The notes beneath the pieces are model-generated. The model was not told where the DNA came from, did no database searches, and saw nothing but the letters and a program-made list of their open reading frames with translations. Shown in pieces: positions 11,703 through 57,803 of a stretch of DNA of 64,000 nucleotides (positions are counted from its first letter, which is position 1; every line of letters starts with the position of its first letter). The DNA is from Chlorobiota bacterium (GTDB taxonomy: Bacteria; Bacteroidota; Ignavibacteria; Tepidaquicellales; OLB5). The translations under genes and the position numbers were made by a program. Location: the NCBI GenBank assembly GCA_022616535.1, contig JAKEEM010000009.1, positions 11,353 to 75,352 on the forward strand, written 5' to 3'.

Positions 11703-11746
11703 ATTGAAGATTGTTGGTTATTTTATAGTAATTATAAGAAATTATT

Positions 11747-13141: not shown

Positions 13142-13152
13142 ATTTATCTAAA

Positions 13153-14529: not shown

Positions 14530-14540
14530 ATTTTACTGAA

Positions 14541-20592: not shown

Positions 20593-20645
20593 TATTTATT
20601 TTAAAAAATATTTTTGTGAAAAATTTTAAAGAGGGGAGAAAAAAA

Positions 20646-35366: not shown

Positions 35367-36077
35367 ATGAAAACATACTTTGAGACTCCAACCTGCGACG
35401 AGTGCAAATCAAGGTTCAACAATGTGTTTTGTTCACTGACCGGCGAGCAGGTAACGGAAATGTCGCTGGATAAAAACTGCAGCATGTATAAAAAAGGGCA
35501 GTTAATATTCTACGAGGGGAACAGACCATCCGGTGTTTATTGCATAAACAAAGGAAAAATTAAAATATTCCAAACAGGCGAAGAAGGCAAAGAGCAGATT
35601 CTCCGCCTTGCAAAAGAAGGCGATGTGCTGGGCTACAGAGCTATGATAAGCGGTGACCCGTATTCAGCTTCTGCTGCCGTTATGGAAGATGCGGTTGTGT
35701 GCTTTATTCCCAAAAAGACCTTTTTTGGCTTTTTGCAGGGTAATTCCGAGCTTTCATCAAATATGATGATGCTACTTTCCCATGATTTAAAGGAAGCCGA
35801 AAGCAGAATAACGGGACTCGCCCAAAAGCCCGTCCGCGAAAGGATGGCGGAAACCATCCTAATGCTGCAGGAATTTTACGGATTAAACGGCAATGATGAT
35901 ACTATAAATGCGTCATTATCGCGTGAGGATATTGCTAATATCGTTGGCACAGCCACAGAAACGGCAATCAGGATTTTGTCCGATTTTAAAAACGAAAAGC
36001 TAATTGAACTTCAGGGCAAAAGGATTAAAATCCTGAACCATTCGGGTCTTGTAAAAGCGGCGCATATATTCGAATAA
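35367..36077 (+). CDS. Crp/Fnr family transcriptional regulator with an N-terminal Cys cluster (FNR-like)
   Basis: 236 aa. N-terminal C10-x2-C13-x8-C22, then a cNMP-binding-like beta-roll, then the C-terminal HTH REDIANIVGTATETAIRILSDF (E-x3-R, as in the FNR recognition helix). Confidence 0.8.
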   Translation: MKTYFETPTCDECKSRFNNVFCSLTGEQVTEMSLDKNCSMYKKGQLIFYEGNRPSGVYCINKGKIKIFQTGEEGKEQILRLAKEGDVLGYRAMISGDPYSASAAVMEDAVVCFIPKKTFFGFLQGNSELSSNMMMLLSHDLKEAESRITGLAQKPVRERMAETILMLQEFYGLNGNDDTINASLSREDIANIVGTATETAIRILSDFKNEKLIELQGKRIKILNHSGLVKAAHIFE

Positions 36078-36146
36078 TCCGTGCAGTAATTTCCCTTAGC
36101 ACGTCTATACAAGTCAGTTTTTCCTCGGCTTTTATCATAATTTTAA

Positions 36147-36191
36147 ATGACAAAAATCATTGTTTTAGCCTCTGTTAAAGGGTTAGTTTTG
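36147..36191 (+). promoter_or_regulatory. FNR/CRP-type box (ATGACAAAAATCAT) plus -7 motif (TAGTTTTG) for the second crp/fnr gene
   Basis: Box at 36147-36160, a 23-nt gap, the -7 motif at 36184-36191, and the ATG at 36217. Confidence 0.5.
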
Positions 36192-36216
36192 TATTGAAAT
36201 TTACAAAGCTAACTAT

Positions 36217-36885
36217 ATGGCAAAATACACTGGTTTAGAAGAAATAATCAAAAATTATAAAGATTTAATCCCCTTAGTCTTTCACAAAAACGAGCTATTG
36301 TTTCAGGAGGGCGAGTCTGCAAAAGGTATTTACTGCATAGAATCCGGAAACGTTAAGCTCAGCAAAAAAGAAGCAAATGACGGCGATAGAATCGTTCACC
36401 TTGCGGCAAAAGGAGAAATTCTTGGGCTGCACGCCGTTGTTAACAGGCACAATTACACAAATTCAGCAGTTGCCTTAACAAAAACTCATAGCTGTTTTAT
36501 TACCGCTGATGATTTCCTGAAGCTGATTGAAGATAACAACACTTACAAGCTGCTTGTGATGAAAAGCCTATGCTCGAGAATCGACACTATGGAAAATCAC
36601 ATAAACAGAATAAGCGATAAGCCGAGCGATGAAAGATTCGCCGATACCTTGCTTATGCTTGTTAACAAATACGGGCTGAACAGGTCAAGGGAACTGAATA
36701 TTCACCTTAGCCTTGACGAGATTGCAAGCTTTACCTGCACTTCCAAGAGCTATATGAAAAAAATAATCTCAGATTTTTCTCAAAGGGGATTAATCTCGTT
36801 CTCAGGGGGAATTATAAATATTCGCAATCTTCCTCAGCTTGAAAATATTGTTAATTTAAGCTCAAAAGCCGCCTTACCAAGTTAA
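36217..36885 (+). CDS. Crp/Fnr family transcriptional regulator (no N-terminal Cys cluster)
   Basis: 222 aa with a cNMP-binding-like domain (GESAKGIYCIESGNVKL) and a C-terminal HTH. Confidence 0.75.
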   Translation: MAKYTGLEEIIKNYKDLIPLVFHKNELLFQEGESAKGIYCIESGNVKLSKKEANDGDRIVHLAAKGEILGLHAVVNRHNYTNSAVALTKTHSCFITADDFLKLIEDNNTYKLLVMKSLCSRIDTMENHINRISDKPSDERFADTLLMLVNKYGLNRSRELNIHLSLDEIASFTCTSKSYMKKIISDFSQRGLISFSGGIINIRNLPQLENIVNLSSKAALPS

Positions 36886-36921
36886 AAGTCTTAAACCGAA
36901 AACTTTGCGTCATAATTGCGC

Positions 36922-36966
36922 GTGATTCTTGTCATGTGAAATTAATATCTGGTATTGTTATTTTTG
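36922..36966 (+). promoter_or_regulatory. FNR/CRP-type box (GTGATTCTTGTCAT) plus -7 motif (TATTTTTG) for the membrane protein-usp pair
   Basis: Box at 36922-36935, a 23-nt gap, the -7 motif at 36959-36966, and the ATG at 37007. Confidence 0.5.
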
Positions 36967-37006
36967 TCTAAGCAGATAATCCGCAAATAATTTAAACTGA
37001 ATCATT

Positions 37007-37384
37007 ATGAGCTCATTAAAAAGAATTTTAGGCTATGGGTTTTTAATATTGGCAATTCCATTTATCGTTGCAATTTTTATATTTCCTTTGAGGGAAAATG
37101 AAAGGCCGCTGTTTGAGTCAATTATGCCTGTTGCAGTAGCTTTAGCGGTTGTTATCTGCACGTTGCCTTACAATAAAAAAATTGAATCGAATTTTTTAAA
37201 GGAAGACATTTATTTCGGCTTGTGGAGCCTTTTAATCTGTATTGTGATAGATTTGTTGATGTTTATGTGGGGTCCTATGAAAATGGCGTTCATTGATTAT
37301 ATGAAGGATATTGGCGTTACTTATCTAATGATACCTGTAATTACTTATGGCATTGGAAAAGCGATAGAGGAAAAGAAAAAGTAA
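37007..37384 (+). CDS. hypothetical small membrane protein
   Basis: 125 aa with 4 predicted TM helices. No family recognised. Confidence 0.5.
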   Translation: MSSLKRILGYGFLILAIPFIVAIFIFPLRENERPLFESIMPVAVALAVVICTLPYNKKIESNFLKEDIYFGLWSLLICIVIDLLMFMWGPMKMAFIDYMKDIGVTYLMIPVITYGIGKAIEEKKK

Positions 37385-37411
37385 AATTGTTTATAAACCG
37401 GAGTTTAAAAT

Positions 37412-38293
37412 ATGAAAAATATATTAGTGCCAACCGATTTTTCGAAGAATTCATTTTACGGGCTGGAATTTTCCGCTAATTTAGCCCGAAGAAGCGGGGC
37501 AAAAATTCATCTTTTCAATGCTGCTCTCACCAGTACTTATTATTACACGAGTGACCCGCTTGTTATTTCCCCGCCCGCTGCCGTTATGGTTGAAAGCATT
37601 AATGAAAACCTGAAAAGAGCCTCAATGAAAAAGCTTGAGAAAATCCAAAAAAGCAGGCTTTTGAAAGGACTAAAAGTAAATTTAAACTGCGAGACTGCAT
37701 TTTCAGTTTACCGCGAAATTATTGAATACTCGAAGAGAATCAGATCGGATTTGATTGTAATGGGCACTAAGGGTGAAAGCAACCTTAAGGATATATTCTT
37801 AGGCAGCACGGCGGAAAGAGTAGTAAGATTTTCTGAAAAGCCGGTGCTTGTCATTCCGAACAAAATTAAAAACTTGAATCCCAAGCTGGTTGTATTTGCC
37901 TCCGATTTTACGGCTGAGGCTTTCGGAATATTTCCTTTTGTATGGGAATTTGCTAAAATATTCGGTTCAAAAGTTGACCTCCTTAAAATTAACACAACCG
38001 ACCAGTTCCGCAGAACAAGAGATGATTCAAAGAGAATGTCAAAGTTTAACAAAAAATTCGGTTCAAAATTCCGTGCGGTTATATATAACGATTATATGAA
38101 AGAGGAAGGTATATTGAATTATTCAGACCAGATTGAGGCGGATTTAATTGCAATCGGAACTCACGGCAAAAAAGGGCTTGCGAGATTTTTTTCCTCCGAT
38201 GTTTCCGAAGGTGTGGTCAGACTGTCACATAAGCCCATTTTGGTTGTAAATTTAAAAAAATTCAAGCGGAAAAGGGATATTTTAAAGGTCTAA
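37412..38293 (+). CDS. universal stress protein, tandem UspA domains
   Basis: 293 aa. Two Usp-like halves (MKNILVPTDFS...LIVMGTKG...GSTAERVV and VVFASDFT...LIAIGTHGKKG...VSEGVVR). Confidence 0.8.
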   Translation: MKNILVPTDFSKNSFYGLEFSANLARRSGAKIHLFNAALTSTYYYTSDPLVISPPAAVMVESINENLKRASMKKLEKIQKSRLLKGLKVNLNCETAFSVYREIIEYSKRIRSDLIVMGTKGESNLKDIFLGSTAERVVRFSEKPVLVIPNKIKNLNPKLVVFASDFTAEAFGIFPFVWEFAKIFGSKVDLLKINTTDQFRRTRDDSKRMSKFNKKFGSKFRAVIYNDYMKEEGILNYSDQIEADLIAIGTHGKKGLARFFSSDVSEGVVRLSHKPILVVNLKKFKRKRDILKV

Positions 38294-38317
38294 CCCGTTT
38301 AGTTTTCTTTAATTTAA

Positions 38318-38350
38318 AACCCTGGGAAAGTAATTTTTTCCGGGTTTTTT
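38318..38350 (+). terminator. intrinsic terminator after usp
   Basis: AACCC(T)GG-loop-CCGGGTT followed by TTTT. Confidence 0.6.
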
Positions 38351-38364
38351 ATGATATTAATCAT
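38351..38364. promoter_or_regulatory. FNR/CRP-type box ATGATATTAATCAT
   Basis: TGAT-N4-ATCA palindrome lying 45 nt upstream of a TATTTTTG motif (38410-38417) that precedes the hemerythrin-like gene. Confidence 0.35.
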
Positions 38365-38578
38365 AATTCCCGCTGAGGCATATCATAGGAAAGCCCTGCA
38401 TTTCAATGGTATTTTTGAGTAAATCAACGCACCTGAAATTTCCGATTTCAATCCGGTGGCAGGCGTCAAAATGCGGAAATGAAGATTTTATGAACACTCC
38501 TGAAAACATAAGACTAAATCCCGTATCAACTCTGAAAATAAGCTTGAATCCGCTTTTTAAATTTTAAAGACTGTGAAA

Positions 38579-39112
38579 ATGGTACTGATAAAAACAAATA
38601 CTAACCAAATTGAAGATCCTATACTTTTTTTAAATGAAGAATATGATAAAATTAACGAAAGAGTAAACCTTATCGATGCTATATACTGGGAAATTGAAAA
38701 AGAAGGAATAAGCGAAACTGTAAACGCAAGAGTTTCGGAACTGATTGTTAATATATTTGTATTTTTAAAAAAGCTGTACCGGATTGAGGAAGAAATTCTT
38801 TACCCTGAGCTTGAGGCGGTCTTGCCCGCACAATCATCTGCAACTGCAATGAAAAGTGAACACAGGCATATCATTTCGATATTAAGAACCATAATAAAAA
38901 CCCTTGAAAACAAGGAAGAACTCAAAGACAACAAAGATATTCTGCAGGCTGAGCTGATTACCATTGCTGATTTGATACGAAGAAACATACATAAAAAGGA
39001 AAAAATCATTTTTCATGAAGCAAGGACTCTGCTGCCCGAAAAAGCACTGGACGAATTACATGAAAAAATGAAAAAAGAATTATCATTCTATTTAAAAAGA
39101 GGGGAAACATAA
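38579..39112 (+). CDS. hemerythrin-like (HHE cation-binding) domain protein
   Basis: About 177 aa of helical protein with H/E motifs (IEEEILYPEL, SEHRHI, IHKKEKIIFHE). The track starts at GTG 38573; ATG 38579 is equally possible. Confidence 0.55.
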   Translation: MVLIKTNTNQIEDPILFLNEEYDKINERVNLIDAIYWEIEKEGISETVNARVSELIVNIFVFLKKLYRIEEEILYPELEAVLPAQSSATAMKSEHRHIISILRTIIKTLENKEELKDNKDILQAELITIADLIRRNIHKKEKIIFHEARTLLPEKALDELHEKMKKELSFYLKRGET

Positions 39113-40968: not shown

Positions 40969-41667
40969 CTAATGGCACTGGATATTTTCCTGTTTTATGG
41001 TGCCCGATTCGAGTTTTGGGCTGAGGTATGGGATTCCGAGATTCAAGCCCCTTAAGATAAATATAAGTGCAAGCAAAATCGAAAATGAAGGGATAAGCTT
41101 TGAAAGCCTGCGCCTTATATTCAGATTTACCAAATTTGCCGCAATTGATGTCCCAAGCATTATAGGCATTGTTCCAAGTCCAAATGCTGCCATAAACAGC
41201 ATGCTGTTGAGGGCATCTCCTATTGCTATTGCGCCAGTGATTCCAATATAAACAAGTCCGCATGGAAGCAGACCGTTTAAAATGCCTATTGCAAGCATGG
41301 AAAAGTTAGAGTGATTATTAAACATCCTGCCCAAGTATGATTTTAATATTCCAATCAATCTGTATGCGCCAAGCTTATTAATAAGCTTTATACGGTATAT
41401 TGGCGGGGTGATCACGGCTAAAATTATTAATATTCCAAGCGAAATTGAAATAAGCTGCTGCAATCCGAACATTTGAAGCCGAGAGCCGAGCAGTCCAAAA
41501 AACAATCCCAGCATTGAGTATGTTATAACTCTGCCTGTATTGTATAATGACCTGGAGATAATGACCGGTTTATTTGTTTTGGGCAGAGCAATTGCAATCG
41601 GGCCGCACATTGCAATGCAGTGAAAACTTCCTAAAAATCCGATTAAAAAACCCGTGAGTAATTCCAT
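40969..41667 (-). CDS. TauE/SafE-like membrane protein (HCxxMCGP type) of the cco accessory cluster
   Basis: 232 aa polytopic protein with an N-terminal GSFHCIAMCGP motif. Its start overlaps the fixH stop. Confidence 0.65.
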   Translation of the reverse strand: MELLTGFLIGFLGSFHCIAMCGPIAIALPKTNKPVIISRSLYNTGRVITYSMLGLFFGLLGSRLQMFGLQQLISISLGILIILAVITPPIYRIKLINKLGAYRLIGILKSYLGRMFNNHSNFSMLAIGILNGLLPCGLVYIGITGAIAIGDALNSMLFMAAFGLGTMPIMLGTSIAANLVNLNIRRRLSKLIPSFSILLALIFILRGLNLGIPYLSPKLESGTIKQENIQCH

Positions 41668-42104
41668 CAGTTAACTATAATTCTTTCCTCGTTATAATAG
41701 TCAATTCCGTTTGCATTCCAGCTTATTTGAATTTTCCACAAACCTTTTTGCATGCTTTCGGTTGTTAATGACTGAGTTAAATTACTGGTTAATTCAACTG
41801 GCACAGAAAAATCTTTCTTTGAATCCGAAGGCCTGTAAAAGGAAATCTCACCTTTTATTTGACCTTTGACTTTCGGAAATGAAATCAAAATCCCGGCTTC
41901 ACCTGCATCTATTTTGACCTGTTCCTTAAGGCGGTTTGTGTTATTAATTTTATCAATCTGTTTTTGGTATTTTATTTCCTTATCATAATAATTTTGCGTA
42001 ACAAGCTCAATGTCTTTTGTCATTGAAATCGATACCATAATAAACACTCCCGACATAAAAAGAAGGTATGCAAGTATTATTCCTTTGCCCCACGAAAATT
42101 TCAT
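41667..42104 (-). CDS. FixH family protein
   Basis: 145 aa with a single N-terminal TM segment and a beta-rich domain. Sits immediately downstream of ccoG, as in fixGH. Confidence 0.65.
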   Translation of the reverse strand: MKFSWGKGIILAYLLFMSGVFIMVSISMTKDIELVTQNYYDKEIKYQKQIDKINNTNRLKEQVKIDAGEAGILISFPKVKGQIKGEISFYRPSDSKKDFSVPVELTSNLTQSLTTESMQKGLWKIQISWNANGIDYYNEERIIVN

Positions 42105-42122
42105 AATTTTATTCTCACAATC

Positions 42123-43538
42123 TTAATTTTGATTAGCCGGCCCTAAAAAATTTGATTTAAATGTTTGAAACTTCTCGCCGTTTGTGTAAATCCCAATTTC
42201 AATCGGTGTATTAACATTATTTACTTTCTGTTTTGGCAGCATCACAAGAAATTTCGTTTCCGAAACAGCATTTGGCTCAAGATTTATATCGCTTCCTATG
42301 ATTTTAATCTCCCCCTGGAGGTTTTCAAGCCTAAGCTGTAAAGGGACTTCATCGAATGTTTTATTTGTAAGCTTAAGCGAGTACAAATTGCTCAAAATTC
42401 CGCCCGGCTGCTCCTGGTAAAGCATACCGGGAGTTCTTAATATCATAAAGTCTATTGGATTTCTGTTGTAAAGAAGTATGCCAAGAACAGCAATTAAAAC
42501 TGTTAATATTACTAAGTATCCGGTAATTCTCGGCGTAAGCTTAAATTTCGTTTTATCCTTAACGTTGTTAAATGATGCATATTTAATCAGTCCACTTGGC
42601 TTGTTAATTTTATCCATTATATTGTCGCATGCATCTATGCAGGCGGTGCAGTTAACGCACTCAAGCTGCGTGCCGTTTCTTATATCAATGCCTGTTGGAC
42701 ATACTGCAATGCACTCCTTGCAATCGATGCAATCGCCCAGTGTTCTTACTTCAGCTTTTTTAATCTTTCCCCGCGGCTCGCCTCTTATGTTATCGTAAGC
42801 AATTACAATTGAGTTTTGGTCAAGCAGAACGCTTTGCAGCCTCCCGTAGGGACAGACGTAAACGCAGGCATACTCCCTGAACCATGCAAAGATGAAGTAA
42901 AAACCGGCTGAAAACAAAAGCATTGCGATAAATCCGCCCGGGTGCATTGAAACAGGTTCAGAAATTATTTTATACAGCTCATCGGTTCCGATTATCCATG
43001 CAAGAAGTGTGTTTGCAATAAATACTGATAAAGCAAAGAAAACAGACCATTTAACCAGTTTTTTAGAGATTTTCTTCGCCGTCCATTTGGAGTCGTTAAG
43101 CAGTTTTTGCCTTAAGTAATCGCCTTCAATCCAGAATTCAATTTTCCTGAATACCATTTCAAGGAATACCGTCTGCGGACATACCCAGCCGCAAAATACC
43201 CGTCCGAATACTACTGTGAATAATATTATAAACACTACAAAGCTTATTGTTGCAAGGACAAATAAATAAAAATCATGCGGCCCGAAAGCCAGTCCGAAGA
43301 GTATGAATTTCCTTTCAACAATGTTAAACATCATAAAGGGATGACCGCTTAATTTTATAAACGGGGTGATAAATAATATTGCCAAGAGAAAAACACTGAA
43401 GACGACCCTTGCCTTATGGAGTCTTCCTTTCGGCTTCTTAGGGTATACGAATTTTCGCTTCCCCTCGTCGGTTACTATTCCAAGCGTATCCCTGAAGGTG
43501 TCCTGCGTATTTTCGATTATATCCCTTGTGAGATGCAT
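42123..43538 (-). CDS. ccoG: cytochrome c oxidase accessory protein CcoG/FixG
   Basis: 471 aa. Has RVFCGWVCPQT, two ferredoxin-type motifs (CIDCKECIAVCP, CVNCTACIDACD), TM helices and a C-terminal Ig-like domain. Confidence 0.88.
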   Translation of the reverse strand: MHLTRDIIENTQDTFRDTLGIVTDEGKRKFVYPKKPKGRLHKARVVFSVFLLAILFITPFIKLSGHPFMMFNIVERKFILFGLAFGPHDFYLFVLATISFVVFIILFTVVFGRVFCGWVCPQTVFLEMVFRKIEFWIEGDYLRQKLLNDSKWTAKKISKKLVKWSVFFALSVFIANTLLAWIIGTDELYKIISEPVSMHPGGFIAMLLFSAGFYFIFAWFREYACVYVCPYGRLQSVLLDQNSIVIAYDNIRGEPRGKIKKAEVRTLGDCIDCKECIAVCPTGIDIRNGTQLECVNCTACIDACDNIMDKINKPSGLIKYASFNNVKDKTKFKLTPRITGYLVILTVLIAVLGILLYNRNPIDFMILRTPGMLYQEQPGGILSNLYSLKLTNKTFDEVPLQLRLENLQGEIKIIGSDINLEPNAVSETKFLVMLPKQKVNNVNTPIEIGIYTNGEKFQTFKSNFLGPANQN

Positions 43539-43539
43539 T

Positions 43540-45266
43540 TTATTCAGCTTTCTTTCTTCTGTTATATACTGTTACTACAAGCTGGAATGTTACTAAAAAC
43601 AGCAGAGTTATCAAAAATCCTAGACCGATTTTTGAAGGTCCTGCAGTCGAACGCCCGCCCATATCCTTAACGCTTACGGTGCCCTTCATATAAGGATGCG
43701 GTGTGCACATATACTTGTAATCGCCTTCCTTGTTGAATGTGAACGTAAAGCTTTCAGTATGCGCAAGCAGCGGTGAAGAAAACGGCTCTGCAATGCCTTC
43801 ATACGAAGTTACGTTATGGATTCCTGCAAACTCTCCCTCCATATATGAGAATACATCTTCATTAACCCATTTGACTTTGGTTCCCTCGGCAATAACGATT
43901 GATTTCGGGTAAAAAGAATTACCAATAATTTTTACAGTTACCTCTCCTGTTTCAGGACCATAATAGGCAACGGGGTCTACATCTGGACTCCCCGGTTCGA
44001 AAGGTGAAATTACTCTTGTAACTTTGGATTTAAGGGTGTTCAATTCTTCCTGCGAGTATTTTGGCCCGTCTCCGATTACCGTTACCGGCGTCTGTGCGCT
44101 GTCGTCGCAGACAAGAAGCCCGATAGCGCCTCTGTCGGTGGGTCCTACAGCGTGATTAAGCATTAGATAAGCGCCTTCATCGGGCGGAACTCTGAATTCA
44201 ACGACCCATGAGTCCGTAGGACCCGCAAGAACACTCTGCCCGCCCGGGTAAACCATATCGGGATTACCCTGCCAGTATGCAAAATCCCAGATTATTCCCA
44301 CAATGTGAAAGGTTGCGGTTTGATTTGGACCTACGTTAAGATAATAAATCCTTACATAATCGCCGGGTTTTGCTTTAATGGGGTTTTCCACGTATCTGAA
44401 CAGCTTGCCGTTGAAAGCCGTATAGAGCGGCTTGCTTTCTATTGCATCTTTTCCGTTTGAGTAAAACTCATGCTGGTTTAAAAATATTTCAACATCCGGA
44501 GGCTTGTTTAATATGGTTTCAAGCTTATACTTCTTCTTTGGTTTTACCACAATCATTCCGTACTGACCGTAAATAACATGCATCGGTATTGCGTGTCCGC
44601 CCGGTGCGCAATGATACATATAAACTCCGGGGTAGGAGACTTTAAACAGCAAGGATTTTGATTTACCCGCTTCGATTTTTCCGAGATACTTTGACGTTTG
44701 GGTATAAGCGGCGTGAATCGACGCACCGTGCGTAACAGTTCCTTTGTTTACAATGGTAAATTCGACTATATCTCCTTCATCAAGCACAATTGTTGGTCCG
44801 GGTATTGTGCCGTTCATTACAAAACCCTTATACAATACTCCGTTGCCAATGTATACTTCGCCCTCGGAAAGCTCAACAGATACTTTTTTATCAGGCGTAA
44901 CATTTTGGGGGACGTAGCTTGTCGGCGGTATTGATAAGCTGTTATCACGGCTGATTATCTGGATAAAATCATTAGGACCTTCCTGCTGCGGAAAACCAGC
45001 TGCTTCGTTTTTAATGCCTGATGTATAGGCCGTTATCGGTAATTGCGATGGATAGCTAATACCGCTTTTGTTGTTTGTAAGGTTTGCAATCGATTTCAGC
45101 AGTTCTTCGCTTACAAGTGAATTACTTCTAGTTGTGAAAAGTTCTTCATAGAATTTAGCATTACAGTAAGGGCATGATAATAGCTCCCCTAACTAAGGAA
45201 GAAAATTAATAAGCCGGTCACAAATAGTGACGGCTTTTTGCAAAAAAGGTTTTTTAATGTTTTCAT
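43540..45266 (-). pseudogene. NirK-like copper protein fused to an amicyanin-like cupredoxin and a C-terminal TM anchor; the N-terminal signal segment is out of frame
   Basis: NirK-like T1/T2 Cu motifs (THGASIH; YMYHCAPGGHAIPMH). C-terminal YMCTPHPYMKG cupredoxin, then a hydrophobic tail. The frame is open from 45192 with no ATG/GTG before TTG 44835. MKTLKNLFCKKPSLFVTGLLIFFLS (45266-45192) lies in the adjacent frame and ends at TAG 45191-45189. Confidence 0.6.
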
Positions 45267-45313
45267 GGCTTTGAGCTTTAAAAGTTAAATGAATGAATGT
45301 TTGAAATTATTTT

Positions 45314-45327
45314 TTGATTGTAATCAA
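45314..45327 (-). promoter_or_regulatory. consensus FNR box TTGATTGTAATCAA
   Basis: Perfect TTGAT-N4-ATCAA, centred about 54 nt upstream of the ATG at 45266. Confidence 0.55.
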
Positions 45328-45362
45328 ATTAACTTATTTAATTGGTTTTAGCGGAATCTGTT

Positions 45363-46283
45363 TTAATTTATATTTGAATCTGTTTTAGTTTTTATTGAAT
45401 CTGTTTTGGATTTAACCGAATCTATTTTTACTTTGATTGTATCGATTTTCGCTGTTGTTGTATCGACCCACACGTTTCCTTCGGGCTGTTTTCCGGCAGG
45501 AGGCTTTGTTCCCTGCAGGCTCAAAACATAGCTCCCTACCTGCTGCATTTGCTTCGGATTCAGCATAGTTTTCCAGCTTATCATGCCTTTTACTGGAACA
45601 CCTTCCTTAATTGTCTTAAAAACGTTCTTAATCCCTCCTCCGTGTATCCAGTACTGGTCGGTTAAGTTGGGTCCAACCGTTCCTCCGGCATCGGGTCCGT
45701 GGCAGGGAACACAGTTAATTGTGAAAATCTGCTTCCCAGCATCAAGCGAGGGTACATCTGTTAATAAAATTACGTTTTCTTCATTTATGAAAGCTCCTGT
45801 TTTAATCAGCTCCTGTTTCTTTTCTTCGGCTATTCTTATTTCCTCAACAAACTCGTCAACCATAATATTTCCCGAGCCAAACACGTGGTAGTCCAGTAAA
45901 TAAATAGCCGCAAAAAGTACAGTTCCGTAAAACAATACATTAAACCACGGAGGGATTGTATTATTCAGCTCGCGTATACCGTCATACTCGTGGTCCATCA
46001 TTATGTCTTTTTCCTTCTCAACGGGAACAGCCCTGTTTAACACCCTTGAAAGCTTTGTCAGAAATGAGAATCTTTCCCTTCTTCTCTCGTATGAGTATTT
46101 ATATTTAGGTGTCGAAAGTATAAAGAACAAAATAAAAAGGAAAGCAACGAGCAGAAATACGGCGGCACCTGCAAGCTGTGAATATTCATTCATGCTTGAA
46201 TCATCTGCAGCCGTTTGTGCAAACTGCATATCATTTATTATAATCAGTGAAAATAAGGTAAATATTTTTTTTATAGTTTTCAT
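45363..46283 (-). CDS. ccoP: cbb3-type cytochrome c oxidase subunit CcoP-like (single heme c motif)
   Basis: 306 aa. Has the FixP N-terminal motif (HEYDGIRELNNTIPPWF), one CVPCHG heme site, and a heptad-repeat tail (DTIKVKIDSVKSKTDSIKTKTDS). Confidence 0.8.
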   Translation of the reverse strand: MKTIKKIFTLFSLIIINDMQFAQTAADDSSMNEYSQLAGAAVFLLVAFLFILFFILSTPKYKYSYERRRERFSFLTKLSRVLNRAVPVEKEKDIMMDHEYDGIRELNNTIPPWFNVLFYGTVLFAAIYLLDYHVFGSGNIMVDEFVEEIRIAEEKKQELIKTGAFINEENVILLTDVPSLDAGKQIFTINCVPCHGPDAGGTVGPNLTDQYWIHGGGIKNVFKTIKEGVPVKGMISWKTMLNPKQMQQVGSYVLSLQGTKPPAGKQPEGNVWVDTTTAKIDTIKVKIDSVKSKTDSIKTKTDSNIN

Positions 46284-46468
46284 TTTAAATCTCCCGCCGA
46301 ATCATTATTGGAATTTTCCAAAGGGAGAGATGCCATTTTATTTAAGTATTTTTTATCTGCTTTAAACATCCATATTATTATCGCAATGAAAAACAGTACG
46401 AATATCACCAGCGATATTATCGGGTAAATTTCAATTCCTTCTATGCTTTGAAGAACATGTTTATACAA
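46280..46468 (-). CDS. ccoQ: CcoQ/FixQ-like small membrane subunit
   Basis: 62 aa with a single TM segment, located between ccoNO and ccoP. Its stop overlaps the ccoP start (ATGA). Confidence 0.65.
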   Translation of the reverse strand: MYKHVLQSIEGIEIYPIISLVIFVLFFIAIIIWMFKADKKYLNKMASLPLENSNNDSAGDLK

Positions 46469-46469
46469 T

Positions 46470-48666
46470 CTATTTAACCTCCTTTGGTTCTATTGTTTTT
46501 ATATCGGCAGTTATTTCGCCTTTAATGTCAGTTCCGAGTCTTTGCAGATAAGCTATTAGGGCTATTATTTCCTTATCGCTCGTAACGGGCGCTCCGTTTT
46601 TCTGCAAATCTTTGGTGATTTCATCGGCTTGTTTTGTTAAGTCGTTTAATGCCTGTGTTTCGTATCCTTCGGGATAAGGAACGCCGATTTTCCTCATTGC
46701 ATTAATCTTTGCTTCAGTGGTCGAGATGTCAAGTGACTGCTCAAACAGCCAGGTATACCTGGGCATAATTGAGCCCGGCGAAATTGATGCGGGGTCATCC
46801 ATATGCAGGTAGTGCCATACATTCGGATACTTTTTGCCTTCCCTGTGCAGGTCAGGCCCCGTTCGCTTTGAGCCCCATAAAAACGGGTGGTCGTAAACAA
46901 ACTCGCCCGCTTTGGAATATTCCCCGTACCTTTCGGTCTCGGAGCGGAACGGTCTTATCATTTGCGAATGGCAGTTATTGCATCCTTCCCTAATATAAAT
47001 ATCCCTGCCCTGCAGCTCTAAAGGCGTGTACGGCTTAACGCTCGAAATTGTCGGCACATTTGATTTCACTAAAAACGTAGGGATTAACTCTACCAGTCCC
47101 CCGATTAAAACTACAACCAATGAAACAAGCGCAAACTTAACGGGTCTTTTTTCAAGCCATCGGTGCCTTGCGCCTGCAGCTGAGCCCGGTTCAATCAATT
47201 CCCTTGCCGGTGCTTCTGCCGGCTCTTCTGCAATCAGCCTGCCCTGCGTGGAGGTTTTGTATAAGTTGTAAACACCAACAATTACCCCCGTTAAGTAGAA
47301 TGTTCCGCCGATTGAGCGGATTGCATACATCGGGATAATCTGTGTAACCGTTTCTAAAAAGTTTGGGTACTGTAATATCCCCTCGGCGGTAAACTCTTTC
47401 CACATCAATGACTGCGTTATTCCCGCCCAGTACATTGCCGAAGCATAAAATACTATGCCAAGAGTTCCTATCCAGAAATGGAAGTTAGCCAGCTTCTTTG
47501 AATAAAGGTTTGTTCCATAAATCTTAGGTACGAGCCAGTAAAGAACGCCGAATGTCAGAAAGCCATTCCACCCAAGCGCACCTACGTGAACGTGGGATAC
47601 AATCCAGTCAGTAAAATGCGCAATTGCATTAACGTTCTTAAGCGAAAGCATCGGTCCCTCAAACGTTGCCATACCGTAAGCGGTGACTGCAACAACCATA
47701 AATTTAAGTATGGGGTCTTCGCGGACTTTATCCCATGCGCCGCGGAGTGTTAAGAGCCCGTTAATCATTCCTCCCCACGAGGGAGCAATAAGCATTATAG
47801 AAAACACTGTGCCTAGCGACTGTGCCCAGTCAGGAAGCGCGGTATTATAATAAATGATGAGGACCTGCCCAGATGTAAATAAATATCAGCACCCAGAAAT
47901 GAACAATCGAAAGCTTGTATGAGTAAACGGGTCTGTTTGCCGCTTTGGGCAGATAATAATACATCAGCCCTAAAAAGGGAGTTGTTAGGAAAAACGCCAC
48001 AGCATTATGTCCATACCACCATTGAACCAGTGCGTCCTGAACTCCTGCATAAACAGAGTAGCTTTTCAAGAACGTAACGGGCATTTCAATAGAATTAACT
48101 ATGTGCAGCACGGCGACCGTTACAACGGTCGCTATGTAAAACCAGATAGCAACGTACATATGCTTTTCTCTGCGCCTAATGATAGTCCCGAACATGTTGA
48201 TAGCAAATACTACCCACACAAGGGTTATTAGAATATCAATAGGCCATTCGAGCTCAGCATACTCCTTGCTAGTGGTGATACCTAAAGGAAGTGTTAGTGC
48301 CGCACATAGAATTATAAGCTGCCATCCCCAAAAATTAATTTTGCTTAAAAGGTCGCTGAACATCCTTGCTTTACAAAGCCGTTGCAGCGAATAATAAACA
48401 CCCATAAAAATAGCATTGCCCACAAAGGCAAAAATGACGGCGTTTGTGTGAAGCGGTCTGATACGGCTGAATGTTGTGTATTGAAGATTGAAGTTCAAAG
48501 CAGGAATGTAAATCTGAAACGCAATCAATAATCCGACAAGCATTCCCACAATCCCCCAAACCATCGTTGCGATTGCAAAATCACGAACTATTTTGTTATC
48601 GTAACTAAACTTTTCCAATCCAATCGCACCGTGAACACCGGTATCCAAAGATTCCTCTTTATGCAT
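46470..48666 (-). pseudogene. ccoN: cbb3-type cytochrome c oxidase CcoN-CcoO fusion, interrupted by a frame break at ~47845-47853
   Basis: ORF 47845-48666 holds the CcoN N-terminal part and ends ...WAGPHHLL*. The +1 frame continues [28 protein letters not shown] into ORF 46470-47807 (rest of CcoN plus CcoO with CNNCHS). Both frames are open across 47848-47885. Confidence 0.8.
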
Positions 48667-49903
48667 TTTGATAGCTCCTCAGTTTCGTTTTATATTCGTT
48701 ATTTATAATGTTAAGCTCTCTCAAACACTTTTTTATTCTCTCAAGTGCAATTGAGATGTCATTGTCCAAACCGACCGAGAATCTTATTAGCCCGTCGCTT
48801 AAACCCATCGATTTCTGGTCTTCACCCGGAATTTCTGATGAAGTGCTGTGTCCCGGCGCGCTGAAAAGCGTTTTAAAATAACCAAGACTTACCGCAAGGT
48901 AACCCACGCGTTCTTCCTGCATTCTTACCATAAGCTTTGCAGCATTTTCATACGTGCCCACATCAAGAGCCAGCATTCCCCCGTAGCCGAAGCCTTCATT
49001 CATTAACTCATTGATTAAATTGTAATGCTTGTTTGATTTTAGTCCCGGGTAATAGACTTTTAATCCAAGCATTTCAAATTCCTGCGCAAGATATAACGCA
49101 TTTGCGCCGTGCTTTTCCATTCTGATATGAAGTGTATGCAGGTTTTTTAAAATACTTGCAGCTCGCAGACTGTCAAGCACGGGACCTAAAAGCATTGTTG
49201 CGCCTGAGTTTACATCAGTTAAGCTGTTTATAAATTCTTCGGTTGAGCAAATACACCCTGCAACGCAATCGCTTGTGCCGTTGATAAATTTTGTCATGCT
49301 GTGAATAACTATATCTGCTCCGAGCCGCTTGGGTGATATAATCATAGGGCTGAAGGTGTTATCCACAACCAGCTTTACGTTGTGCTTTTTTGTAATTTCG
49401 CTTAAGGCGGGGATATCGGTTATTTCAAGCAGGGGATTACTGATTGATTCAGCGTAAATTACTTTTGTTTTGCCTGTAATTGCTTCTTCCACCTGCTTAA
49501 GGTTCTGCATATCCACAAAATTTACCTTGATTCCAAGTTTTGGAAGAAAGTTTTTGAAAAGCGCGTAAGTTCCCCCGTAAATGGTTCTTTCTGATACAAT
49601 TTCATCTCCCGCGCCGCACAATTGCAGTATTACTGTGCTTATCGCACCCATTCCCGATGCAGTTACCTGCGCCGATTCGGTATCCTCAAGTCTCGCAAGC
49701 GCGTTTGAAAGAAACTTGTTAATCGGGTTCCAGTGCCTTGAGTAAAGGAAACACCCTTCGATATCGTGCTGGAAGGATTCCTCCATTGTTTTGGGATTTA
49801 AAAATGTAAATGTGGATGAATCCGTAATGGACGGGTTGACATCGCCGAACTCGCCGAATACTAAGTAATCGTGTATTTGTGTGCTTGGGTCAAACTTTTT
49901 CAT
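48659..49903 (-). CDS. Cys/Met-metabolism PLP-dependent enzyme (methionine gamma-lyase / cystathionine gamma-synthase family)
   Basis: 414 aa. Has YSRHWNP, ASGMGAI and the PLP-Lys motif [12 protein letters not shown]. Overlaps ccoS (14 nt) and the ccoN start (8 nt). Confidence 0.8.
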
Positions 49904-50114
49904 TTTCGTTTATGTTTTTGCTGTTTATAGTTTTGTTGTTTATAGTTTTGTTGTTTATAGTTTTGTTGTTTATAGTTTTGTTATCAAATAAAATTCTTAC
50001 GCTTGGAGTGTAAGAGTCGTCATACTGCCCGGTTTTAACCGCCCAGATGAATGCAAATAAAAAACTCGCTGCAATCAGCAGACTGAATCCGATTAAAACA
50101 AGAATTACACTCAT
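49890..50114 (-). CDS. ccoS: cbb3 oxidase maturation protein CcoS with a repetitive C-terminal tail
   Basis: 74 aa. FLFAFIWAVKTGQYDD is typical of CcoS/FixS. The tail is (NKTIN)x4. Confidence 0.8.
   Translation of the reverse strand: MSVILVLIGFSLLIAASFLFAFIWAVKTGQYDDSYTPSVRILFDNKTINNKTINNKTINNKTINSKNINENEKV
49908..49982. repeat. 15-bp in-frame tandem repeat (GTTTATAGTTTTGTT x4 perfect plus 1 degenerate)
   Basis: Read directly. Encodes the NKTIN repeats of the CcoS tail. Confidence 0.9.
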
Positions 50115-52576
50115 ACCAGACCCCTTTTCTTTGCCATTAAGTTCGTAGAGGAAACGGTGAAGAGCACAACCGTTACCGAGCTCAAAGGCATCAAAATTGC
50201 TGCAAGCAGGGGAGAAATTTCGGATTGAAATGCAAGAGTAACTCCGATTACGTTGTAAATAATCGAAATCACAAAGCTCGATATAATTATTTTCTTAGTT
50301 GTCTTTGAAAACCTCATAAAGCGGGCGAGCTTGCCAAATGATGATGCCTCAAGTATCCCGTCGCATGCTGGAGAGAAGCTTGCAGCGTCTTCCGAGATTG
50401 CTATACCAACATCGCTTTGCTTCAGCGCACCCGCGTCATTAAGTCCGTCGCCGACCATTAAAACCTTTCTGCCGTTTAGCTGCGATGATTCAATGAATTT
50501 GAGCTTATCCAGTGGTGACTGGTTAAACTTAAATTTTGTATTCTCATTAAAATACTTTGTCAGGTTTTCCTTTTCGCCGCTGCTATCGCCCGATAAAACG
50601 GCTAAGCTGTAATTTTCGTTTAATGCTGAAGTTATTTCCTCAAGCCCTGAGCGGTAAATGTTGTTTATGCTGAAATATCCTTTTATTGAACCCGCTATTG
50701 TTAAAAATATTCTTGTATCCGGCTTTTCACCTGCCTTATCGGGATAGTTCAATATTTTGTTGTTATCTGCGCAGAATAAAGCCGAGCCGAGACGGATTTT
50801 AACCTTATCAGCCGAGCCTTCGATTCCCCTGCCTGCGTGCTCAGTAAAGTCTTTTATTTCAAGTATTTCATTTGATTCAAGCGCGTCGTAAATCCTTCCG
50901 CTCAGGGGGTGGGTTGAGTTTCTCACAAGGGACTTTACGAGCTTTTGCTCGTATGAATTTAGTACCGAGCCGTTAAACGTTATGTTTGCATCACCTGTTT
51001 GGGTAATAGTACCCGTTTTATCGAACACAATTGTATCGATTTTTGACATCCGCTCAACAACCGAAGCGTTTTTAAGGTATAATTTGTTTTTGCCAAGTAT
51101 TCTTATGGCATTTCCCAGCGCAAAAGGATTTGTTAAAGCAATTCCGCAGGGACAGGCAATAATCAGTACCGCTGTAAACGCGTTAATTGCAGTTCTTAGA
51201 CTTACGGGGTACCAGTAAACAAACGCAGATGCGGCAATTAAAAGAATTATAACGGTAAAATATTTCCCAACAACGTTAACAAGCGAGTTAAAGCGGTTTT
51301 CATCTTTTTTTATAAATGTATCTTTATTCCAAAGCTGAGTCAGGTAGCTTTGCGAAACGGTTCTTATAACTTCCATTTCAACCGCTCCGCCGATTTGTTT
51401 TCCTCCGGCGTAAATTATTTCGCCTGCCACCTTCTGCACGGGGATTGATTCACCCGTTACGAAGCTGTAATCAATATTTGCGCTCGATGAAAATAGAATC
51501 GCATCTGCAGGCACAAGCTCGTTATTTCTGATGATGACTCTGTCTCCCTGCTTTAATTTTGAAACAGGTATGCTTGACTCAATTCCTTTGTTTACAATTG
51601 TTACCGAAATCGGGAAATATGATTTGTAATTTCTTTCGAAATTCAGCGCGTCATAAGTTTTGCTTTGAAACAGCTTGCCCAAAAGCAGGAAAAATATTAA
51701 CCCCGTCATTGAGTCGATAAATCCCGCCCCCGTACCGGTAAGGATTTCAAATACGCTTCTTACAAAAAGCACGGCAAGACCAAGTGAAATGGGAAAATCA
51801 ATATTAATTGTCTTTTGCTTTACTCCGTTATAAGCCGATTTAAAGTAATCCGATGCTGAATAAAATAAAACCGGAATGCCCAAAACTATATTCAGCAAGC
51901 CAAAAAATTGTTTATAAAGGGATTCCAGATGCGTTTCAAGCGAAAGGTATTCAGGGAAGCTGAGCAGCATAACGTTGCCGAAGCAGAATCCCGCTATGCC
52001 TATTTTGTAGTAAAGGTTTCTGTTTGAGCGGTATTTGATTTTATTTTCAATATCGCTTAAGCTAATCTGCGGCTCATAGCCAACTGATACAAGAAGCTCA
52101 ACTAGCCTGCGAAGCGAAATTTCATTATGATTAAACTTTACTGTAAGCGATTTCTGCAAGAAATTTACTTCGGAGTGGATTATGCCACAATTCAGCTTGT
52201 GAAGGTTTTCCAGAAGCCAGATGCATGAAGAGCAGTGAATCTGCGGAATGTTGAAGTTAACAACGGAAATGTTTCCGTCTGAAAAGCTGACAAGGCTGTT
52301 TATTATTTGATTATCATCGAGGTAGCTGCAGCGTGATTTAACTGCACTTTCAAGTTTTTCACTATCAAGCTTCTTTTGCGAAATACCGGGCGATTTGTCG
52401 ATTTCATAATAGGCGCAAAGGTTGTTTTCGTTTAGAATCTCAAAAACGGTTTTACAGCCAAGACAGCAAAAATGCCTGCCTTCTGCAGTAATATCAACTC
52501 TATCACATGCTTCGCCGCAGTGATAGCAGTTTGCCACTTCCTTTAGGTAAACTTCCGAAAACTGCATAATTTTCAA
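50111..52576 (-). CDS. ccoI: copper-translocating P1B-type ATPase CcoI/FixI
   Basis: 821 aa. N-terminal CYHCGEAC...FCCLGC, the CPC motif (ACPCGIAL), the phosphorylation site DKTGTIT and GDGLNDAGAL. Confidence 0.88.
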   Translation of the reverse strand: MKIMQFSEVYLKEVANCYHCGEACDRVDITAEGRHFCCLGCKTVFEILNENNLCAYYEIDKSPGISQKKLDSEKLESAVKSRCSYLDDNQIINSLVSFSDGNISVVNFNIPQIHCSSCIWLLENLHKLNCGIIHSEVNFLQKSLTVKFNHNEISLRRLVELLVSVGYEPQISLSDIENKIKYRSNRNLYYKIGIAGFCFGNVMLLSFPEYLSLETHLESLYKQFFGLLNIVLGIPVLFYSASDYFKSAYNGVKQKTINIDFPISLGLAVLFVRSVFEILTGTGAGFIDSMTGLIFFLLLGKLFQSKTYDALNFERNYKSYFPISVTIVNKGIESSIPVSKLKQGDRVIIRNNELVPADAILFSSSANIDYSFVTGESIPVQKVAGEIIYAGGKQIGGAVEMEVIRTVSQSYLTQLWNKDTFIKKDENRFNSLVNVVGKYFTVIILLIAASAFVYWYPVSLRTAINAFTAVLIIACPCGIALTNPFALGNAIRILGKNKLYLKNASVVERMSKIDTIVFDKTGTITQTGDANITFNGSVLNSYEQKLVKSLVRNSTHPLSGRIYDALESNEILEIKDFTEHAGRGIEGSADKVKIRLGSALFCADNNKILNYPDKAGEKPDTRIFLTIAGSIKGYFSINNIYRSGLEEITSALNENYSLAVLSGDSSGEKENLTKYFNENTKFKFNQSPLDKLKFIESSQLNGRKVLMVGDGLNDAGALKQSDVGIAISEDAASFSPACDGILEASSFGKLARFMRFSKTTKKIIISSFVISIIYNVIGVTLAFQSEISPLLAAILMPLSSVTVVLFTVSSTNLMAKKRGLV

Positions 52577-52630
52577 AACAAAATTACCTTTTTGCAGGGA
52601 AACGGGGTATGACTTTAGTCAATTGGGAAT

Positions 52631-52644
52631 ATGATTTTTATCAT
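52631..52644. promoter_or_regulatory. FNR/CRP-type box ATGATTTTTATCAT in the divergent ccoI / T9SS-cargo intergenic region
   Basis: TGAT-N4-ATCA centred about 61 nt upstream of the ccoI ATG (52576). Identical in sequence to the box at 40162-40175. Confidence 0.4.
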
Positions 52645-52714
52645 AGATTAAAATCGCAAAAAACACATAATTTTTAGGCATATTTGGCACTTGATTAACC
52701 TTTAAAGTTTTGCT

Positions 52715-54136: not shown

Positions 54137-54165
54137 GTTAAAAAAATAATCAGGAGGAAGTTAAA

Positions 54166-57564: not shown

Positions 57565-57584
57565 AAACCATATTAAAGACAATC

Positions 57585-57610
57585 AAAAGGGGCTAACGCC
57601 CCTTTTCTTT
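57585..57610 (+). terminator. intrinsic terminator after the 1132-aa gene
   Basis: AAAAGGGGC-TAAC-GCCCCTTTT followed by CTTTT. Confidence 0.75.
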
Positions 57611-57803
57611 TGTCTAAATCTGCTATTTAGGTTAAATTCTCTTTTTCTTACATATCATAAAATTTAACTTTATATTGCTTTTTAAAACGGTGTAAGCTCC
57701 GCTCACCCCAAAAGCCTGCCCGTCCTCTGGCGGGTAAATCTGCTATTTAGAAAAATTGTCTCATATATGGGTTATTTCCTTTGTAACTGCCTTGAATTTT
57801 GGG

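Follow-up and report, generated by a model that had tools for sequence, protein, structure and literature searches.

The DNA analysed here, hereafter the window, is a 64,000-nt stretch of the Chlorobiota bacterium assembly GCA_022616535.1 (contig JAKEEM010000009.1, positions 11,353-75,352), and all coordinates below are counted along it. On its minus strand, inside a cluster of cco genes for a cbb3 oxidase, lies a nirK-like gene. We consider it likely that this locus is that of a membrane-anchored copper nitrite reductase of the three-domain type known from Thermus scotoductus (TsNirK), that its position among the cco genes is particular to one lineage, and that the gene has recently been broken. 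By homology, copper ligands and architecture, the predicted protein is a NirK-type copper enzyme of the TsNirK class. The reference enzyme, TsNirK of T. scotoductus SA-01 (PDB 6HBE), is a nitrite reductase of three domains, the C-terminal one an amicyanin-like cupredoxin that carries the type 1 copper site T1CuC; it reduces nitrite at 65 s-1 with a KM of 27 uM, its inner type 1 copper (T1Cu) has the ligand set His2-Cys-Gln, and Ser78 occupies the place of the catalytic Asp, which is universal elsewhere (Opperman et al., IUCrJ 2019, PMC6400189).

Copper sites and architecture of the protein

Residue numbers (H155, S158 and so on) are counted along the 550-codon body frame of the nirK-like gene. 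The best PDB match of this protein is TsNirK itself (6hbe_A; phmmer E 4.3e-116), over residues 102-509 and thus including the C-terminal domain, and BLASTP gives 44% identity over 424 aa (E 5e-128). Throughout the core the two sequences align without a gap, their residue numbers differing by 80. An AlphaFold2 (AF2) model built from 85 aligned relatives, with a predicted local distance difference test score (pLDDT) of 84.7, superposes as a monomer on 6hbe with a template-modelling score (TM) of 0.89 and a root-mean-square deviation of 2.5 A in Foldseek. The Foldseek matches to the core are 6hbe and Geobacillus NiR, and the classical NirKs cover the core only. Pfam recognizes Cu-oxidase_3 in the core and a plastocyanin/azurin-type Copper-bind domain at the C-terminus.

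An earlier note on this DNA, made by eye, had described a NirK-like core with the motifs H-G-A-S-I-H and H-C and a further His, and these residues (H155...H160, H194-C195, H205) are present and homologous to those of TsNirK. The same note suspected that the equivalent of the catalytic Asp98 is Ser, and two alignments bear it out. The sensing loop aligns without gaps to His75-Gly-Leu-Ser78-Ile-His80 of TsNirK, which places S158 on Ser78(CAT); in Geobacillus NiR, S158 aligns with position 98, the aligned entry being the D98N mutant, hence the column of the catalytic Asp (AspCAT). Judged from these alignments, the catalytic Asp is genuinely replaced by Ser158, and the catalytic His is kept as H296. 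All copper ligands and catalytic residues of TsNirK are conserved in the aligned window protein and invariant in the 85 relatives, among them H160, H194, H347, H296, V298 and Q319. The third His of the type 2 copper (T2Cu) site in NirK enzymes is supplied by the adjacent subunit (PMC6400189), and H347, which aligns with His267 of TsNirK, is the candidate for this ligand. At the inner type 1 site, the earlier reading of a loop three residues longer than usual with a Met ligand took M213 as axial and does not hold: the axial position (H-x4-X) is Q210, whose counterparts in the alignments are Gln130 in TsNirK and the axial Met in Geobacillus NiR, and the stretch from Cys to His is two residues longer than in Geobacillus NiR. 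A comparison with NirK structures, which had been proposed as a check, thus finds the type 1 and type 2 ligands and the catalytic His in place, with Ser for Asp and Gln for the axial Met. A trinuclear multicopper oxidase like PDB 9CCK is ruled out by the motif H194-C195-A196, unlike the H-C-H of such enzymes, together with H-x4-H and a TM of only 0.59.

The C-terminal domain III is an amicyanin-like cupredoxin, as had been noted from its C-T-P-H-P-Y-M loop. It keeps H459, C496, H499 and M502, which answers the doubt whether the domain would prove to lack its copper ligands; the NCBIfam amicyanin model TIGR02657 also matches it below threshold (2.5e-12). This cupredoxin is most likely a built-in electron entry domain, and the earlier idea of a donor-tethered nitrite reductase fits a NirK core with a fused cupredoxin of the TsNirK kind. 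A disordered stretch (residues 510-520 in the AF2 model) separates domain III from the hydrophobic C-terminal helix and basic tail, which are as first described. Given a Sec signal peptide, the C-terminal helix and the positive-inside rule, the RKKAE tail would be cytoplasmic and the catalytic part periplasmic, with domain III facing the membrane.

These features are widely shared. A protein search returned 877 matches at E<=1e-10, the best 120 of which are 57-92% identical and 428-623 aa long and bear the names 'nitrite reductase (NO-forming)' in JGI and multicopper oxidase or plastocyanin-family protein in NCBI. When one genome of each species was scanned, 290 proved to contain relatives; the 79 best of these, which served as species-level loci for synteny, come from Ignavibacteria, many orders of Bacteroidota, Balneolales, Opitutales/Verrucomicrobia, one member of Fibrobacteraceae and two gammaproteobacterial metagenome-assembled genomes (MAGs). 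In a motif census of 195 relatives, the axial Gln and the CxxHxxM loop of the cupredoxin occur in every sequence, the Ser-type sensing loop H-G-[AGS]-S-[IVL]-H in 193, the hydrophobic C-terminal helix in about 190 and an N-terminal CxxC[NTSD] motif in 157. Thus the Ser, the Gln and the C-terminal cupredoxin are the norm for a large family and not oddities of the window protein. The architecture, thought unusual at first sight, is that of TsNirK and is common to hundreds of proteins; the domain order had been named as one that might turn out to be common together with a conserved Asp and His, and it is indeed common, with the His (H296) kept and the Asp really Ser. Ser-for-Asp, Gln and cupredoxin were already published for the TsNirK class in 2019, and the window protein is a membrane-anchored member of it. 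In the NirK phylogeny of Pold et al. 2024, Clade 5 includes Thermus; literature searches for a membrane-anchored or Bacteroidota/Ignavibacteria enzyme of the TsNirK type turned up only the TsNirK paper itself and nirK phylogenies of a general kind. One locus (L007) has two full-length anchored NirK paralogues, at 2401-4017 and 5322-7028, with a RIC/ScdA gene between them.

The N-terminal region, unremarked in the first reading, is a further addition to the NirK core: after the signal peptide come a C-P-Y-C-N motif, two helices and a linker. At least 90% of the 85 sequences have C7 and C10, the helices span residues 8-19 and 26-39 (pLDDT about 85 in the AF2 model), and the consensus of the module is ACPxCNxxFYxELxxxRxNTLxGxELLxAIxNQ. 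The linker that follows varies in length and sequence among homologues. Residues at the end of the signal peptide are Ala or Ser at -1, small or aliphatic at -3 and often charged (D, E, K, R) at -2; those before the first Cys appear to match the A-x-A site of signal peptidase I no less well, and perhaps better, than the lipobox L-[AS]-[GA]-C of an AniA-like lipoprotein. In six Ignavibacteria-type loci (L027, L032, L037, L038, L043, L051) the module is a secreted protein of 110-113 aa with an ORF to itself, and the NirK of 512-521 aa encoded just downstream has a second signal peptide. A gene fission or fusion has thus taken place, and the module can be regarded as a unit in its own right. Neither Pfam nor NCBIfam recognizes it, and a profile search of the PDB, with one profile row partly guessed, gave only chance zinc-knuckle-like CPxC..F matches. 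A role in copper handling is only a guess.

Compared with known enzymes, the window protein shares with TsNirK the domain order (NirK core I-II, then the amicyanin-like cupredoxin), the H-G-x-Ser-I-H loop, the His2-Cys-Gln set of the inner copper T1Cu(N), the T2Cu His triad, the catalytic His and Val (HisCAT, ValCAT), the Gln of the Gln-Thr pair, the ligands of the outer copper T1Cu(C) and the bridging Glu. It differs in having about 100 additional N-terminal residues (signal peptide, C-x-x-C-N module and disordered linker) and a C-terminal transmembrane helix that ends in a basic tail. Neither is present in the TsNirK chain of 451 residues, and the alignment stops at residue 441 of that chain. 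Moreover, the window gene is frameshifted and outside the Thermus denitrification cluster, and the window is of low GC content (39%) and, judged by the closest homologues, belongs to a mesophile-type Ignavibacteria/Bacteroidota lineage, unlike Thermus. With classical NirKs (AxNiR, AfNiR, Geobacillus NiR, AniA; E from 1e-41 to about 1e-17) it has in common the fold of paired cupredoxins, the Cys-His bridge, H-x4-H, three T2Cu His and HisCAT, but it differs from them by the Ser, the Gln, the extra cupredoxin and the membrane anchor. AniA is attached to the membrane by an N-terminal lipid, whereas the window protein would be attached by its C-terminal helix. A redox partner fused to the NirK core is also found in class III NirKs (HdNiR, 2DV6 and 6TFD; RpNiR and PhNiR, 3ZIY and 2ZOO), where it is an N-terminal cupredoxin in HdNiR and a C-terminal cytochrome c in RpNiR and PhNiR; in the window protein it is a C-terminal cupredoxin. 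The class III enzymes keep AspCAT and the axial Met, as did all NirKs before TsNirK (PMC6400189), and match structurally over the core only (target-normalised TM 0.50-0.54). In the archaeal multicopper oxidase Nmar_1354 (MCO4 type; PDB 9CCK; sequence match E 5.6e-25), a T1 cupredoxin dangles from the C-terminus of a trimeric core of two cupredoxins, about 13.5 A from the core T1 site, and the enzyme has a trinuclear T2/T3 oxygen-reducing site (PMC11761707); the window protein instead has the mononuclear-site motifs H-C-A and H-x4-H, not H-C-H with paired H-x-H.

Gene structure and decay of the cco cluster

The body of the nirK-like gene ends at the stop codon 43540-43542 on the minus strand, and its frame is open up to 45192 (550 codons plus stop). 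The frame begins with 119 codons that contain no ATG, GTG or TTG, and the first canonical start is a TTG at 44835. The ATG at 45266, with a signal peptide of 25 codons, is in another frame, which ends at the TAG 45189-45191. The closest relative of the protein (P0001, 92% identical) is encoded in locus L080 (JGI 3300031965, Ga0326597_10006488), and a pairwise DNA alignment with this locus places a 1-nt deletion at about 45191/45192, where the window reads CTTAGT-TAGGGG and L080 reads TCAACCGCAGGAA. Homologues have the signal peptide contiguous with the body, followed by [AS]-C-x-x-C-N. The gene as assembled is apparently a recent pseudogene, in which a 1-nt deletion has uncoupled the signal peptide from the enzyme. 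The earlier note had taken 43540-45327 as one intact ORF; the ATG and signal peptide are in the other frame, 45327 is the edge of the FNR box described below and not a gene start, and the gene is frameshifted relative to L080. The features are collected in Table 1.

Table 1. Features of the nirK-like locus and related genes, in window coordinates
Feature	Position	Strand	Basis or remark
nirK-like body, without a usable start or signal peptide of its own	43540..45192	minus	550 codons plus stop
Signal peptide segment MKTLKNLFCKKPSLFVTGLLIFFLS and start codon	45192..45266	minus	different frame from body
Frameshift site, one base missing relative to intact L080	45189..45197	minus	pairwise DNA alignment
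N-terminal module, residues 4-40: predicted signal-peptidase site, C7-P-Y-C10-N, two short helices	45073..45183	minus	
C-P-Y-C-N motif (C7 to N)	45160-45174	minus	
Disordered low-complexity linker, residues 41-72	44977..45072	minus	AF2 pLDDT <50
NirK core, cupredoxin domains I and II, residues 73-365	44098..44976	minus	Pfam, TIGR02376, PDB and Foldseek matches
Sensing loop H155-G-A-S158-I-H160: H155 T1Cu(N), S158 SerCAT, H160 T2Cu	44713..44730	minus	TsNirK alignment
H194 (T2Cu), C195 (T1Cu), H205, Q210 (axial), to M213	44554..44613	minus	= TsNirK His114, Cys115, His125, Gln130
H296-I-V298, HisCAT and ValCAT (TsNirK His216, Val218)	44299..44307	minus	alignment; invariant in 85
Gln-Thr pair of TsNirK (Gln239-Thr240), Q319-S320 in the window protein			alignment
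H347 (TsNirK His267), candidate third T2Cu ligand	44152..44154	minus	alignment; invariant in 85
Domain III, amicyanin-like cupredoxin, residues 416-509	43666..43947	minus	Pfam Copper-bind 4.8e-14
E454, aligned with the electron-transfer bridge Glu385 of TsNirK	43831-43833	minus	alignment
T1Cu(C) ligand H459 (TsNirK His390)	43816-43818	minus	alignment
Loop C496-T-P-H499-P-Y-M502 (TsNirK Cys428, His431, Met434)	43687-43707	minus	alignment
C-terminal hydrophobic/transmembrane helix, residues 521-545, and basic tail RKKAE	43543..43632	minus	AF2 helix 521-549
FNR/Crp-type palindrome TTGATTGTAATCAA	45314..45327	.	perfect TTGAT-N4-ATCAA
ccoP, membrane-anchored c-type cytochrome, single CXXCH, directly upstream of nirK	45363..46283	minus	Pfam FixP_N and Cytochrome_CBB3
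ccoG (FixG), start 1 nt after the nirK stop	42123..43538	minus	
Crp/Fnr-family regulator, Cys cluster C10-x2-C13-x8-C22 plus C111	35367..36077	plus	candidate reader of FNR box

A second break lies in the fused ccoN-ccoO gene (46470-48666, minus), where a frameshift at about 47807-47850, in the conserved ...WAGPHHL... region, leaves Pfam COX1 positions 1-262 and 277-435 on two separate ORFs. Both breaks recur in Logan contigs: L086, an 8.6-kb re-assembly contig of run SRR29686276, is 100% identical to the window over 8598 nt, nirK break included, and the same truncated 273-aa ccoN product occurs in a contig from run SRR16971109 (2 samples). Since frameshift signatures in the window are limited to nirK and ccoN among about 48 genes and both recur, random sequencing-error noise is largely rejected. 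A programmed frameshift is also rejected as unlikely; it would need a -1 shift at CTT-AGT-TAG, no slippery heptamer was seen there, and the homologue has the extra base. A look-up of the 425-aa truncated product returned no record and is uninformative.

L080 is syntenic with window 41255-57775 at about 84% DNA identity and shows what is happening to the cluster. Four separate deletions have removed from it most of ccoI, ccoS, the C-terminal part of ccoN with ccoO and ccoQ, ccoG, fixH and most of the DsbD_2 gene, and a 5-kb block with two genes for proteins with type IX secretion system (T9SS) tails; the pyridoxal phosphate (PLP) enzyme gene, ccoP and an intact nirK are kept. Between L080 and the window, the ratio of nonsynonymous to synonymous substitution rates (dN/dS) is 0.024 for nirK and 0.085 for ccoP. 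Because L080 keeps nirK under purifying selection without most of the cbb3 genes, nirK is independent of the cbb3 oxidase; ccoP, maintained there without its oxidase, is thus a reasonable candidate for the NirK electron donor. As the cco region is decaying in this lineage, the two frameshifts of the window are more likely to be real.

Genomic context in the window and in homologous loci

The genes on the strand of nirK follow in the order ccoI, ccoS, a Cys/Met-type PLP enzyme, ccoN-ccoO (fused), ccoQ, ccoP, FNR box, nirK, ccoG, fixH and DsbD_2, so that nirK does lie between ccoP and ccoG, as the earlier note had it. CcoP reaches 96 bits against TIGR00782 (cutoff 180) and matches profile positions 12-197 of 285 only. 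Probably nirK and ccoG are co-transcribed, together with fixH and the DsbD_2 gene. The perfect FNR box that had been noted is real, and it is the only zero-mismatch TTGAT-N4-ATCAA in the 64-kb window, where about 0.2 would be expected from base composition. It is located in the 96-nt spacer between ccoP and nirK, its centre 54.5 nt upstream of the ATG at 45266. The candidate reader of the box has Fnr as its best NCBIfam match (99.6 bits, below cutoff). It belongs to a plus-strand group at 35367-39112, 5-8 kb away and syntenic in L080, that comprises two Crp/Fnr regulators, a 125-aa protein without assigned function, a tandem-Usp protein and a hemerythrin-domain protein; this group may be an oxygen/NO-sensing unit acting on the box.

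Several other features of the surroundings are recorded here. The PLP enzyme (Cys/Met metabolism, 414 aa; 48659-49903, minus) has ccoS and ccoN as its neighbours, each of which it overlaps by a few bases; L080 retains it with a dN/dS of 0.033, and it has no obvious tie to oxidase biogenesis. Across the 3' end of ccoP, at 45354-45428, a 21-nt tandem repeat of 3.5 copies (plus-strand consensus GAATCTGTTTTAGTTTTTATT) encodes a repetitive C-terminal tail, ...KIDTIKVKIDSVKSKTDSIKTKTDS. Farther away on the plus strand, 10207-15914 holds four tandem paralogues (457-475 aa) with a glucose/sorbosone dehydrogenase domain and a T9SS C-terminal sorting domain, and further proteins with T9SS tails are encoded at 18769-22304, 52715-54136 and 54166-57564. 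Such genes agree with an origin in the Fibrobacteres-Chlorobi-Bacteroidetes group.

To survey the position next to ccoG beyond this lineage, the window proteins CcoG, CcoP, CcoN, CcoO, FixH, DsbD_2, CcoI, CcoS and the PLP enzyme were compared by tblastn with the 79 species-level loci, for which up to 7 kb of flanking sequence was available (at least 3 kb on both sides in 49). None of the 79 has ccoG, ccoP, ccoNO or fixH within 7 kb of nirK; the sole tblastn exception is a COX1-family gene in L021 that is part of a norCB-like pair. A conserved link to cbb3 oxidase is accordingly rejected. In L021 the region downstream of nirK (2990-6293) encodes a pair of Crp/Fnr regulators along with a cytochrome c of 141 aa and a COX1-family protein of 444 aa in a norC-norB-like arrangement. 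Among the 75 loci analysed for neighbouring genes, 21 have a gene for the iron-centre repair protein RIC/ScdA, nine a Crp/Fnr regulator, eight an Rrf2 (NsrR-like) regulator and four a hemerythrin. A small cytochrome c gene directly adjoins nirK in four, as the upstream gene in L083/L008, L029 and L056; at one locus it lies 23 nt upstream of nirK and is itself preceded by RIC and Crp/Fnr genes. This pattern of RIC, Rrf2, Crp/Fnr and norCB-like neighbours fits an enzyme that produces nitric oxide (NO) better than an oxidase accessory.

A nirK gene near cco genes has been described in SAR11 isolates from the Benguela upwelling, where it adjoins ccoNOQ and ccoPGHIS with a crp/fnr regulator, an arrangement read as low-oxygen co-expression (PMC12816887). 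The SAR11 gene, however, is of classical type I, lies outside the cco operon and goes with a separate pseudoazurin, whereas the TsNirK-type gene of the window sits between ccoP and ccoG.

Proposed mechanism, alternatives and significance

The authors of the TsNirK structure propose that electrons pass from T1CuC to T1CuN and on to T2Cu (PMC6400189). For the intact protein, as it occurs in relatives, we infer a trimer, a membrane topology, an electron path and donor, nitrite reduction in vivo and FNR control along the following lines. The Sec signal peptide would export the chain and the C-terminal helix would anchor it in the cytoplasmic membrane, and the three cupredoxin-fold domains would build the usual NirK trimer. 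Electrons would enter at the outer T1Cu of domain III, about 12 residues from the membrane helix, a spacer short enough that the domain would face the membrane and its membrane-bound cytochromes c. They would then move to the inner T1Cu (His2-Cys-Gln), probably via the Glu454 bridge, and across the Cys195-His194 bridge to T2Cu (H160, H194, H347'). This site would convert nitrite to NO, and Ser158 and His296, acting as Asp and His do in classical NirK, would handle protons. The likely donor is a c-type cytochrome, which here may be the mono-haem CcoP and elsewhere the small cytochromes c encoded beside nirK. The FNR box would probably turn on expression when oxygen is low. The position in the cco cluster would be a lineage-specific insertion: nirK would have its regulation by low oxygen, and perhaps its supply of copper, in common with the cco genes without being a functional component of the cbb3 oxidase. 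Both CcoG and CcoI have roles connected with copper.

Several observations weigh against this reading. The core scores 122.7 bits over residues 102-350 against TIGR02376, the NCBIfam equivalog for copper nitrite reductase, well below its curated cutoff of 296.3 bits; the shortfall is a property of the TsNirK clade, since TsNirK itself scores only 143.4 bits. Thr240 of TsNirK is replaced by Ser320. Nitrite reduction has been measured in TsNirK, from which it is carried over here to the membrane-anchored subfamily. A cytochrome c gene stands beside nirK in a minority of loci only, and 13 of the 75 loci (L023, L034-L036, L041, L042, L044, L045, L050, L053, L054, L066, L079), mainly from Bacteroidales MAGs, instead have a convergent caa3 oxidase operon beside it, with CoxII carrying a cytochrome c domain, CoxI, CoxIII, CoxIV and CtaB, and in six loci an HMA-domain membrane protein; a looser link of nirK to terminal oxidases may exist. 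FNR-type boxes occur upstream of eight of the 85 homologues, two of them perfect and most in Opitutales, against a background of 3.9% per 430 nt, which rejects the box as a family-wide feature; it is also degenerate in L080, the closest relative. FNR control may thus be strain-specific. Finally, L086 may come from the same read set as the window, and the frameshift could be a read or assembly error.

The last point leads to the most serious of the alternatives, namely that nirK is intact in the living organism and that errors of sequencing or assembly have produced both the 1-nt gap and the frameshift of ccoN. The break is a single missing base, and the body shows no decay, with its low dN/dS and every ligand kept; this agrees with an intact gene. 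Yet the gap is outside any long homopolymer, no gene other than nirK and ccoN shows such a signature, the nirK sequence is identical in the re-assembly of SRR29686276 and the truncated ccoN product recurs in a different run, and the sister lineage L080 has independently lost most of the cco genes, so that the cluster is demonstrably decaying. We hold an artefact to be the less probable explanation, though one to be taken seriously. As for what the enzyme does, its Ser-for-Asp site might catalyse another reaction in vivo, such as oxidation of NH2OH or NO or reduction of O2, with nitrite reduction as a side activity. Nmar_1354 (9cck), the second-best structural match and likewise endowed with a 'dangling' C-terminal cupredoxin, oxidises NH2OH to HNO (PMC11761707); the turnover of TsNirK is about 7-fold below that of AxNiR and about 12-fold below that of the Geobacillus enzyme, and its authors suggest an alternative mechanism (PMC6400189); and an aerobic oxidase operon is the neighbour in the 13 caa3 loci. 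However, the site of Nmar_1354 is a trinuclear T2/T3 cluster, while only a mononuclear T2 is expected from the H-C-A and H-x4-H motifs of the window protein, which also resembles 9cck far less than TsNirK in fold (TM 0.59 vs 0.89); TsNirK does reduce nitrite with a micromolar KM; and the commonest neighbours (RIC, Rrf2, Crp/Fnr and the norCB-like pair) suit NO production. A different principal reaction is therefore unlikely.

The suggestion in the earlier note that this may be a different copper enzyme tied to cbb3, that is, a copper enzyme or electron carrier for the oxidase such as an electron-entry or copper-handling accessory, draws on the place of nirK inside the cco cluster immediately before ccoG, on an FNR box typical of cbb3 regulation, and on the caa3 loci, in which nirK stands beside a different haem-copper oxidase operon, six of them with the HMA-domain membrane protein nearby. 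It does not survive the comparison of loci: ccoG, ccoP, ccoNO and fixH are absent within 7 kb of nirK in all 79, and L080 retains nirK intact at a dN/dS of 0.024 after the deletion of ccoO, ccoQ, ccoG, fixH, ccoS and most of ccoI, ccoN and DsbD_2. Moreover, the protein keeps a complete NirK catalytic site, for which neither an electron carrier nor a chaperone would have any use. We regard such a role as very improbable, and a TsNirK-type nitrite reductase that is placed among cco genes in one lineage remains the preferred reading. A bolder idea, which we offer as speculation with little prospect of being right, is that the anchored Ser/Gln-type NirK of Ignavibacteria, Bacteroidota, Balneolales and Opitutales forms a membrane-surface module beside haem-copper oxidases that makes or consumes NO locally, with the CxxC-N module as a copper-delivery or assembly factor of an undescribed kind.

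The lineage of the window shows a cbb3/nirK cluster in decay, which matters wherever metabolic potential is inferred from gene presence alone. The TsNirK class is much wider than its Thermus example, with hundreds of members in Ignavibacteria, Bacteroidota, Balneolales and Opitutales, nearly always anchored; TsNirK-type sequences that fall below the model cutoff may be missed or mislabelled in surveys of nitrogen-cycle genes. The anchored form would put the electron-entry copper beside the membrane, and this provides a testable idea about the donors of these enzymes.

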